Source: Octopus vulgaris
Taxonomy: Eukaryota
Assembly: GCA_951406725.2 (NCBI GenBank)
Contig: OX597815.1
Location: forward strand, 35,774,001-35,838,000
Direction: 5' to 3'
Length of the DNA: 64,000 nucleotides
Made by a program: the position numbers and the translations under genes. Position 1 is the first letter of the stretch. Every line of letters begins with the position of its first letter. Under the pieces are notes generated by a model, which was given only the letters and a program-made list of their open reading frames with translations, was not told the DNA's origin and searched no databases. Below, in pieces: positions 38,799-63,510 of this stretch.

Positions 38799-39557
38799 TT
38801 AATGGCTAGGTATTTCGGGGCCGTTGTAATCAGACTCGTCGCACCAAAAGTCAGGCGGCTGTTGAATTTGAACCAGCCATGATATTTTCTGAGAACTCTC
38901 CTCTGGTTGACTGAGTGGTCTAGGTGGCGAATGCCCCTTGGTTATTTCGTAATAATTACATCTCCTATCAGAGTCCGTATCGTAGGGCGGGGCCAGGATA
39001 TCAAGGAAGGCCGCGGGTCCACCATCGGGTCGAACTTCGTGAAGGTTACCTTTTGTAGGTGACAACACACAGCAATCATCGTTCACGGATGCTTTCTTTT
39101 TGGGTACCTCCAAAAATGGTTTTGGTGTCCTGTCGTAATCTCTGAGAAATTTCTTAAATTCATTATTGAAGCTAGTAGCTGTAGTGGAAGCGGAAGAGGT
39201 AGGTTGTTCTGAAGAAACGGGTACTTCATCAAATGATTCGAGAGACAGAGTTCCATGGATGACTTTAATTATTCCAAACATACCTGGGTGGTCATGTAAA
39301 GGAATCCGGCTGTTTTCTTTCAAGACAAATATCCCCATACTGTACACTTCGTCTTCAAAAATATGAATGTATGTGACCGGAGCATTATTGTTTTTGCTTC
39401 TTTCGGTTAAAGCTGGGTTAAAGTTAAGATCCCTTCCTCTTACTTGGTTCATTAATTTAACAAGTTCGTTCAGCTTTTCCTGGAACAGGGGCTCCTTCAG
39501 ACTGCCAGAAAAGGCCCTACGAGCAGCTTTACTGACCTCTTGAATCAGTAACGCCAT
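38799..39557 (-). CDS. ADO: 2-aminoethanethiol (cysteamine) dioxygenase, PCO/ADO thiol dioxygenase family; intronless, 252 aa
   Basis: APVTYIHIFE, MGIFVL..IPLHDHPGM.G.IKV.HG (His-His of the iron triad), P..GNLHE (third His), AAFLDILAPPY and RRCNYY (Cys-x-Tyr) are hallmark ADO motifs. Uninterrupted ORF. Confidence 0.95.
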   Translation of the reverse strand: MALLIQEVSKAARRAFSGSLKEPLFQEKLNELVKLMNQVRGRDLNFNPALTERSKNNNAPVTYIHIFEDEVYSMGIFVLKENSRIPLHDHPGMFGIIKVIHGTLSLESFDEVPVSSEQPTSSASTTATSFNNEFKKFLRDYDRTPKPFLEVPKKKASVNDDCCVLSPTKGNLHEVRPDGGPAAFLDILAPPYDTDSDRRCNYYEITKGHSPPRPLSQPEESSQKISWLVQIQQPPDFWCDESDYNGPEIPSH

Positions 39558-39809
39558 TCTAACAATCGGACTGCGTTGGCGCCAACAACAAATCTGGATT
39601 AGTTACGTCGGAGAGAAACCAGTACGTCTGTGACTATCAATATTAATAATGGCAGTCACGTAGACCAGCTTAGGGGAGGTAATACGGTGAAACTTGAAAA
39701 AAGAACACTGTGTAAGTTAAGTCCCTTAGTTCTATCCTCTCTCACTCCCCCTCTCTCTCTCTCTCTCTATATATATATATATATATATATATATATATAT
39801 ATATATATA

Positions 39810-40703
39810 TACTCTCTTTACTCTTTTACTCTTTCACTTGTTTCAGTTATTTGACTGCGGCCATGTTGGGGCACCGCCTTTAGTCGAGCAAATCGACCCC
39901 GGGACTTATTCTTTGTAAGCCCAGTACTTATTCTATCGGTCTCTTTTGCCGAACCGCTAGTTTACGGGGACGTAAACACACCAGCATCAGTTGTCAAGCA
40001 ATGCTAGGGGACAAACACAAACACACAAACATATACACACACACTTATATATATATATATATATACATATATACGACAGGCTTCTTTCAGTTTCCGTCTT
40101 CCAAATCCACTCACAAGGCATTGGTCGGCCCGGGGCTATAGCAGAAGACACTTGCCACGCAGTGGGACTGAACCCGGAACCATGTGGTTGGTTAGCAAGC
40201 TACTATATATATATATTTATTAATAATTATATATGTATTTATTAATAATTATATATATATATATATATATATCTTTTACTCTCTTTTACTTGTTTTAGTC
40301 ATGTGACTGTGGCCATGCTGGAGCACTGCCTTTAGTCGAGCAAATCAACCCCAGGACTTATTCTTTGTAAGCCTAGTACTTATTCTATCGGTCTCTTTTG
40401 CCGAACCGCTAGTTTACGGGGACGTAAACACACCAGCATCAGTCGTCAAGCGACGTTGGGAGGACGAACACAGACACACAAACATGCACACACACATACA
40501 TATATATATATATATATATATATATATATATATATATATATATATATATATATATACATGTATACGACAGGCTTCTTTCAGTTTCCGTCTACTAAATCCA
40601 CTCACAAGGTTTTGGTCGGTTCGAGGCTATAGTAGAAAGCACTTTCTCAAGGTGTCATGCAGTGGGACTGAACCCAGAACCATGTGGTTCGTAAGCAAGC
40701 TAC
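39810..40703 (-). mobile_element. Two tandem SINE family A copies (39810-40204, 40272-40703) immediately upstream of ADO
   Basis: Both match family A in reverse and both are truncated in the tRNA head at ...gcaagctac. Confidence 0.88.
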
Positions 40704-61949: not shown

Positions 61950-62160
61950 ACGGGAAGCTTTATGAAAATAGACAAAAGACGAAGGCAGGTGGAAAACAAA
62001 CAAACAATTGTATTAGTATGGCGCTCAGGAAATATAAATAAAACAAGTCTTTAACGTTTCGAGCCTACGCTCTTCAACAGAAAGATACACAGAGAAAAAA
62101 AACACAGAAAGAAGGAGAGAAAAAAATGCGTGCAGTAACTAACGAATCAACATGGCGATC
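61950..62160 (-). mobile_element. Short Penelope-derived repeat with a variant hammerhead motif (62048-62085), antisense in BIN3 intron 4
   Basis: Minus strand TCTTT-CTGTTGAA-GAGC-GTAG-GCTC-GAAAC-GTT-AAAGA. Confidence 0.6.
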
Positions 62161-63373
62161 CATGTATGTATATATGTATGCATATATTGATGTATATATA
62201 ATGCGTATATGGTTGTGTGTATGTATATTTTATGGCAGTGAATTGGCTGAATGAACATAATCATCATCATTTAATGTCCATGTTACATGCTGGCAGAGAC
62301 TGGATAGTTTGACAGGATCTGATTGGTCCAAGGACTGCTCTGAGCTCTACTGTCTGCTCTGGTGTGGTTTCTATGGCTGGATGCCCTTCTTAATACCAAC
62401 CACTTGACAGTTTGTACTGAGATCTTTTCTCACGCCACCAGGACTAGTGAGGTTACCATGTAGCATGCAAAACTATGAACCCCAAATGGTGGGGTTCAAC
62501 TTTATGCTAAGGGTTGAAGGGTTAAAGTATGAGAGGAGGTGGTGGTGGACAGAGCAGTTCCTTGTTGTGGAGTAGCTACATGGCTACTCATATTTAGAAG
62601 AGAAGGTGAGAATGATCAGTAAGCATTCTGCAAAGAGATAAACATTGGTGATGAGGTATCCATGTAGAACATCACGGTATGAGGTAAGTTAAAGTGAGTG
62701 AGGACAGATGAACTAGGAGTGTGAGTGTGAATTTGCCAGAGTGCATGATAGATCAAGGGCTGGAGGAATGAGATAGGAGGGGAGATGGACAACAACTGTA
62801 AAGATTGTATATAGTTGAAGGATAGATGTAGGGCACGATAGACAAGTGGTGGTGCATGACAAATGATGTATGAGTTGGGGAAGATAGAGGAATGCAGAAG
62901 AGAATGGAGGGTGGGGAAAGAATTGCAGAGCAGTAATGATGATACAGTTGACAGGGAGAGAACAAGGGGCAGGAGTAATGAATGAGGAGAGATAATTGGG
63001 TCCAGTGGCGATGGGAATGAATCAGTGTAATGTGTGAATAGAGAGAATATTAATGGATGAAGAATGGCTAACAGGTGAAATGGTTCGGCTGGCAAACATG
63101 ATTGTTTACAGTATGGAGTTACTGTTCTTTACGTTCTAAATTCAAATGCTACAAGGGTCAGCTTTGCCTTTTGTCCTTCCTGAATAAGTACTAATCAAAT
63201 ATCTGGGTCAGTATCCTTGTTATATCCTGCTCTGTAATTTGAGACCAGAGAAATCATTACCACTATCATCAAGAATAATATAGCTTCTTTTCCATGCAAC
63301 TTTCTTATTAATGTAACCTTATTAAACTAATTCTTTTTTTTTTCAAGACTTACAATATGTTTCTGTTTCACAG

Positions 63374-63510
63374 ATCTGAGTAAATGTGAACAGAGAATCA
63401 CACAAGATTTAATGGCCAGTGCATTATGTAAGTCAGAATCAGAATTAAAGCATCACTGTGAAGAGTGGGATAATTCAATTGTCAAGTTGAACCCTCATAT
63501 GCAAGAAATG
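63374..63510 (+). CDS. BIN3: Bridging integrator 3, exon 5 (137 nt; BAR domain); gene continues past the window end
   Basis: tttcacag|...atg|gtaagt. LSKCEQRITQDLMASALCKSESELKHHCEEWDNSIVKLNPHMQEM aligns to human MSKSAVKISLDLLSNPLCEQDQDL...NQEK. Confidence 0.9.

Follow-up and report, generated by a model that had tools for sequence, protein, structure and literature searches.

In the Octopus vulgaris genome, a gene for cysteamine/N-terminal cysteine dioxygenase (ADO) and a BIN3 gene lie side by side on chromosome C2, and the pair is probably what is left of an ancestral BIN3-ADO-EGR block, with a rearrangement having detached EGR in the octopod or cephalopod line. The window that we analyzed is a stretch of 64,000 nucleotides (C2:35,774,001-35,838,000) of a 2.8 Gb genome. 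A sequence-only reading of this DNA had described ADO (minus strand) and BIN3 (plus strand) as adjacent and divergent, and this is confirmed, with the start codons pointing apart and ~15.1 kb between them.

ADO occupies positions 38799..39557 on the minus strand as one coding exon of 252 aa. The domain Pfam PCO_ADO covers the full length of the ORF (E 1e-50), the best PDB matches are mammalian ADO chains (E about 1e-45), and there is a single match genome-wide. The gene is ADO, nearest to animal ADO. The octopus coding region is one exon, and the introns of the window BIN3 are 0.7-3.6 kb.

Five coding exons of BIN3 fall in the window, all on the plus strand: an 8-nt exon 1 (54676..54683, with the ATG at 54676), exon 2 (55371..55419, 49 nt), exon 3 (59023..59063, 41 nt), exon 4 (61108..61169, 62 nt), and exon 5 (63374..63510, 137 nt). 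A GT follows all five exons and an AG precedes all four of the internal ones; we take the sizes of 8, 49, 41, 62, and 137 nt to be those of the human gene. Exon 5 is 100% identical to the NCBI protein 'bridging integrator 3-like [Octopus vulgaris]', in line with the sequence-only reading of the animal as a coleoid, and exons 1 and 3 match the start and the residues, respectively, of protein P0121, which has 79% identity to O. sinensis BIN3. The O. sinensis protein passes Pfam BAR; P0121 itself has only a weak Arfaptin match below the cut-off. Judged by its grouping with named BIN3 proteins in a tree, the predicted window gene is BIN3, and it runs on past the window to about 76.7 kb (window-relative).

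A second, tandem BIN3 copy, more conserved than the first, lies to the right of the window (C2:35,854,752-35,877,662; window-relative about 80.8-103.7 kb), and a genome-wide search finds BIN3 matches solely beside the window. The first exon region of this second copy, missed in the sequence-only reading, is near-identical to that of copy 1. O. bimaculoides likewise carries two BIN3 copies; the window gene groups with the second of these in a tree, with a terminal branch of 0.21, and branches of the conserved type are <0.01 in two other octopus species. Because the copies group in this way and cuttlefish BIN3 falls outside both types, the duplication is likely specific in origin to the octopus line. 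The BIN3 beside ADO is a fast-evolving tandem duplicate, the faster-changed copy of the two. Farther along, a CRAL/TRIO exon of a SEC14-like gene (L011:663-1082, minus strand, window-relative 154.7 kb) faces the BIN3 copies.

The 15.1-kb interval that separates the start codons (39558..54675) is at least 73% repeat, a lower bound for dispersed or tandem repeats measured against 429 kb of other genome sequence and the window itself, and contains retroelement pieces (RVT_1, GIY-YIG). Three unique islands of 417-541 bp are left. RVT_1 or GIY-YIG was found in three of the 11 long ORFs scanned and the other eight had no match, in agreement with the earlier description of this interval as mostly transposon with no recognizable gene; a small or noncoding gene may nonetheless be present. 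One retroelement piece with a GIY-YIG endonuclease (43,942-45,291, minus strand) is presumably Penelope-like.

The earlier reading proposed that a BIN3-ADO-EGR regulatory block survives at this locus and predicted a plus-strand EGR gene to the left of the window. Neither proposal is borne out: the sole EGR is at C2:56.02-56.03 Mb, on the minus strand and 20.2 Mb to the right of the window on the same chromosome, and the regulator does not sit beside its supposed bystanders. Two exact EGR-finger codon patterns each match once genome-wide (C2:56,020,232 and 56,020,148, minus strand), and the ORF at C2:56.02 Mb carries the three EGR fingers. In a protein search, this locus scored 232 bits versus 100 for the next match (150 of 10,831 candidates scored), and the EGR first exon, 10 kb further along, is also single in the genome. 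EGR fingers were found neither within 100 kb on either side of the window nor anywhere in it, including the 1-38 kb from which they had been reported absent. The 200 kb surrounding EGR are mostly transposon ORFs, with no ADO- or BIN3-like sequence seen among the long ORFs there, and genome-wide searches place ADO and BIN3 at the window locus alone. Gene order on C2 is thus ADO(-), BIN3(+), 20 Mb, EGR(-). The chance of EGR sharing this chromosome by length is 7.7% (215.6 of 2,800.5 Mb), and the shared location is therefore mild support for an old linkage. Linkage of the wider paralogon was not found, with CCAR (PF14443) on C5 and NRBF2 without a match in the genome.

The region left of ADO, in which the earlier reading had placed EGR 3' enhancers, contains a spliced transcript that it missed. 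Its two exons (19805..21783, the first ending at 19869 and the second starting at 21637) are on the plus strand as judged from the GT-AG intron, and the 19869->21637 junction was seen in contigs from two of four runs, which we guess to be RNA and none of which is recorded as RNA. CpG observed/expected is 0.15-0.60 at about 18-36 kb versus about 0.45-1.4 in the 100 kb leftward, a CpG-poor zone as in a methylated gene body. The joined frame from the ATG at 19823 would encode ~64 residues, and a Pfam scan of the frame holding the second exon gave no match. Because of this transcript, the "unique islands" left of ADO include a gene or long noncoding RNA, and part of the 17-36 kb stretch is spliced transcript rather than enhancer islands. 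A coding-looking frame of 238 residues on the plus strand (L020:8217-8930), about 81 kb beyond the left end of the window, has no Pfam match and sits in unmethylated DNA. An intact block, with a plus-strand EGR left of the window and enhancers in 1-38 kb, correctly anticipates the orientation of ADO and BIN3 and could draw on the shared chromosome, which has a low probability by chance; but with the only EGR far to the right on the opposite strand, no EGR motif in the 100 kb to the left, and a transcript occupying the region left of ADO, we consider it highly improbable.

The sequence-only reading held that the adjacency would be coincidental if EGR were missing from the vicinity of ADO and if ADO and BIN3 were not neighbors in other animals. 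The former is what we observe in octopus; the latter is not what we observe elsewhere. We used closeness of accession numbers as a proxy for gene adjacency, which is strand-blind and assumes that pipelines usually number in gene order. ADO and BIN3 accessions are consecutive in seven of the 10 annotation sets with both genes, and two apart in one. These (with BIN3 accessions given by their last digits) are Patella caerulea (ADO KAK6177855, BIN3 853/854; tags SNE40_012737 and 012736), P. vulgata (XP_050395392 and 390, two apart), Mytilus galloprovincialis (VDI46303 and 304), M. trossulus (XP_063434523 and 521/522), M. californianus (XP_052102059 and 058), M. coruscus (CAC5425893 and 894), M. 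edulis (CAG2243040 and 039), and O. bimaculoides (XP_014770143 and 140-142, 144, a run without a gap). In the remaining two sets, the RefSeq annotations of M. galloprovincialis and M. edulis, the accessions are 9 and 3,738 apart, respectively, and the ADO and BIN3 contigs are equal in size within each; two extra Mytilus ADO records have no BIN3 partner among the records listed. The close accessions span three mollusc classes (gastropod, bivalve, and cephalopod), and every named species is a mollusc. We infer that consecutive numbers reflect neighboring genes.

Direct DNA evidence comes from a sample of metagenome contigs with 77 ADO loci, some of which may not be animal. BIN3 is present in one of the 26 loci that extend at least 1.5 kb upstream of ADO: contig L036 has, 1.3 kb upstream of its ADO, a minus-strand BIN3 exon 2 of 52 nt bounded by AG and GT, which puts the two genes head-to-head, and this exon scores 67 versus 21 for the best other site (10,159 candidates). 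In a quick, weakly resolved tree the L036 ADO groups with none of the gastropods, bivalves, chelicerates, or deuterostomes sampled. The head-to-head orientation has been seen in the window and in L036. BIN3-profile matches in L039, L094, and L095 were weak (E 0.4-2) and not accepted, and no ADO relatives were found in viral contigs. Taken with the close accessions in eight of the 10 sets, the head-to-head DNA of L036 upholds the proposal of an old ADO-BIN3 adjacency. The two genes appear to form a conserved ancient pair, being neighbors in several distant lineages by accession and by the L036 DNA, and one that is likely common to limpets and mussels.

A link between ADO and EGR outside vertebrates is seen in the same sample, in which EGR converges tail-to-tail on ADO in five of the 77 loci (L075, L076, L077, L078, and L083). 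Stop-to-stop gaps are 300 bp (L075), 453 bp (L076), 851 bp (L077), and 548 bp (L083), i.e., 0.3-0.9 kb, and L078 encodes the same proteins as L077. The EGR intron is present in L075-L077, which are hence genomic; L083:1-2860 holds a spliced EGR together with the 3' part of ADO, again tail-to-tail, an arrangement that points to transcripts overlapping at their 3' ends or to a join made in assembly. EGR at these loci shares its opening, first-exon motif with octopus EGR. Their ADO proteins represent three lineages with 44-47% identity between them, and because all five form a single clade (SH-aLRT 93, quick tree) we count them as one invertebrate group. EGR lies beside ADO in five of the 28 loci that extend at least 1.5 kb downstream and in two of the seven that reach at least 5 kb, although many of the EGR-negative loci come from one related set. 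ADO beside EGR in L075, L076, and L077 has an intron in the first third of its coding region, unlike octopus ADO.

Three gene families joined by pairwise links are most simply explained by one ancestral block: BIN3-ADO is found in molluscs and L036, ADO-EGR in the invertebrate group and human, and BIN3-EGR3 in human. The human links come in part from the literature. A human SNP that lies 15 kb from ADO, on its upstream side, is at the same time 22 kb downstream of EGR2 (PMC6422937), a placement that implies that these genes are tail-to-tail. BIN3 and EGR3 are named within one small human region in the accessible part of PMC5905168, and both appear in an alphabetical 8p21.3 gene list (PMC4346930). 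As far as its available portion goes, PMC12121985 gives EGR chromosome bands and nothing further on linkage, and no EGR entry is present in the searched supplement files of the KLF/SP paper PMC4558859. We propose that BIN3-ADO and ADO-EGR once formed one trio, which vertebrates would have split through loss of different duplicates, so that ADO stays by EGR2 and BIN3 by EGR3.

An alternative is that only the pairwise links are old, with no trio in the mollusc ancestor, such that octopus lost nothing. No contig with BIN3, ADO, and EGR together was found among the metagenome loci; L075 has an FNTA exon upstream of ADO and no BIN3 in 10 kb upstream, and in L033, the sister of L036 by its ADO, no EGR occurs over the 10 kb downstream of ADO. 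The named species with adjacent accessions are moreover all molluscs. However, BIN3 must then have reached EGR3 in vertebrates by coincidence and on the side that the trio predicts, given the human BIN3-EGR3 orientation that we take to be correct, and the L036 ADO stands apart from the sampled gastropods and bivalves, albeit with weak resolution. We regard this account as unlikely, if worth bearing in mind.

The trio could also be ancestral yet never constrained, with compact neighbors simply persisting in slowly rearranging genomes. Other neighbors of ADO are common, such as a same-strand Methyltransf_16 gene following ADO in EGR's place in the related set L043, L044, L047, L048, and L050 (within L043-L050), and a DnaJ/Myb gene in L041, and octopus tolerates both 15 kb of repeats inside the pair and the loss of EGR from it. 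Against this, the same ADO-EGR orientation at <1 kb despite 44-47% ADO identity, and again in human, indicates long survival, and we think absence of any constraint quite improbable. The L041 region (12796-15966), which is one contig, also includes a gene for an N-terminal asparagine amidohydrolase within 5 kb downstream of ADO; this enzyme, like ADO, functions in the N-degron pathway.

Of the ways in which an ancestral pair could have been kept, the most likely is a short upstream region common to two divergent housekeeping genes, within which a breakpoint would be damaging. In octopus, 15 kb of repeats would later have filled the shared region, so that the two genes probably use separate promoters and the linkage of the pair is now probably inertia. 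An inversion breakpoint between ADO and EGR would turn BIN3(-), ADO(+), EGR(-) into the octopus order, and one inversion fits two of the four possible same-chromosome arrangements. The ADO and EGR genes of Argonauta lie on separate scaffolds, of 26.5 and 57.3 Mb, which fits a break common to octopods, although both scaffolds may still be one chromosome. The product of octopus EGR exon 2 gave no match when looked up exactly, and an EGR profile searched against 1.84 billion representatives returned EGR in four of the best 150 matches, which many-finger proteins dominate; one of these four is named, that from Argonauta, and none is named as limpet or mussel.

The pair resembles the conserved ancestral microsyntenic 5'-5' pairs of Irimia et al. 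(2012; PMC3514665), unrelated divergent genes that are neighbors across distant lineages, for which a shared upstream region is one of two causes of survival given in the part of that paper available to us. The short distance typical of such pairs is matched in L036 (1.3 kb), whereas the octopus interval of 15.1 kb is mostly repeat and does not qualify as a short conserved intergenic region. ADO, BIN3, and EGR are absent from the main text of that paper, and its supplement may list the pair. There is likewise a resemblance to the genomic regulatory blocks treated in the same source, in that the regulator EGR has long been linked to a housekeeping neighbor in other animals; unlike such blocks, the octopus locus has its EGR at a distance of 20 Mb, and the ADO coding region lacks an intron that could hold enhancers. 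As with the metazoan microsyntenies that cephalopods have kept (Schmidbaur et al. 2022; PMC9023564, as far as available), an old neighborhood persists in a rearranged coleoid genome, but here two unrelated genes and a local duplicate are kept. Supplementary file 4 of that study has no row for PF07847, PF11928, or PF03114 within the first 400 characters of its cells, and a term search of its supplements gave no entry for these genes. Relative to human ADO-EGR2 (10q21) and BIN3-EGR3 (8p21.3), the same three families are involved and the tail-to-tail arrangement of ADO and EGR recurs in L075-L078 and L083; in human each partner sits by a different EGR paralogue, in contrast to octopus, which holds ADO and BIN3 together with EGR apart. 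Full-text searches for the gene names together with synteny terms turned up no paper describing a BIN3-ADO-EGR block, and no mention was found in the literature of the accession numbers adjoining ADO.

Ancient gene pairs, and the loss of such pairs in coleoids, are already known from the available parts of PMC3514665 and PMC9023564, and the ADO-BIN3 pair alone is a modest addition to that class; the value lies in the reconstruction of one ancestral block. Such a block would explain why human 10q21 disease signals are hard to assign between ADO and EGR2, and octopods would offer a datable case of a regulator quitting its block. It follows too that when a block is rebuilt from human paralogues, its intactness in a coleoid is not to be presumed. 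More speculatively, and only as a tentative possibility, the trio may have been present in the last common ancestor of protostomes and deuterostomes, with EGR control elements spanning ADO to BIN3, and octopods may have freed EGR by one large inversion. If true, this would be a natural experiment in which an immediate-early gene left its ancient regulatory neighborhood in a large-brained lineage.
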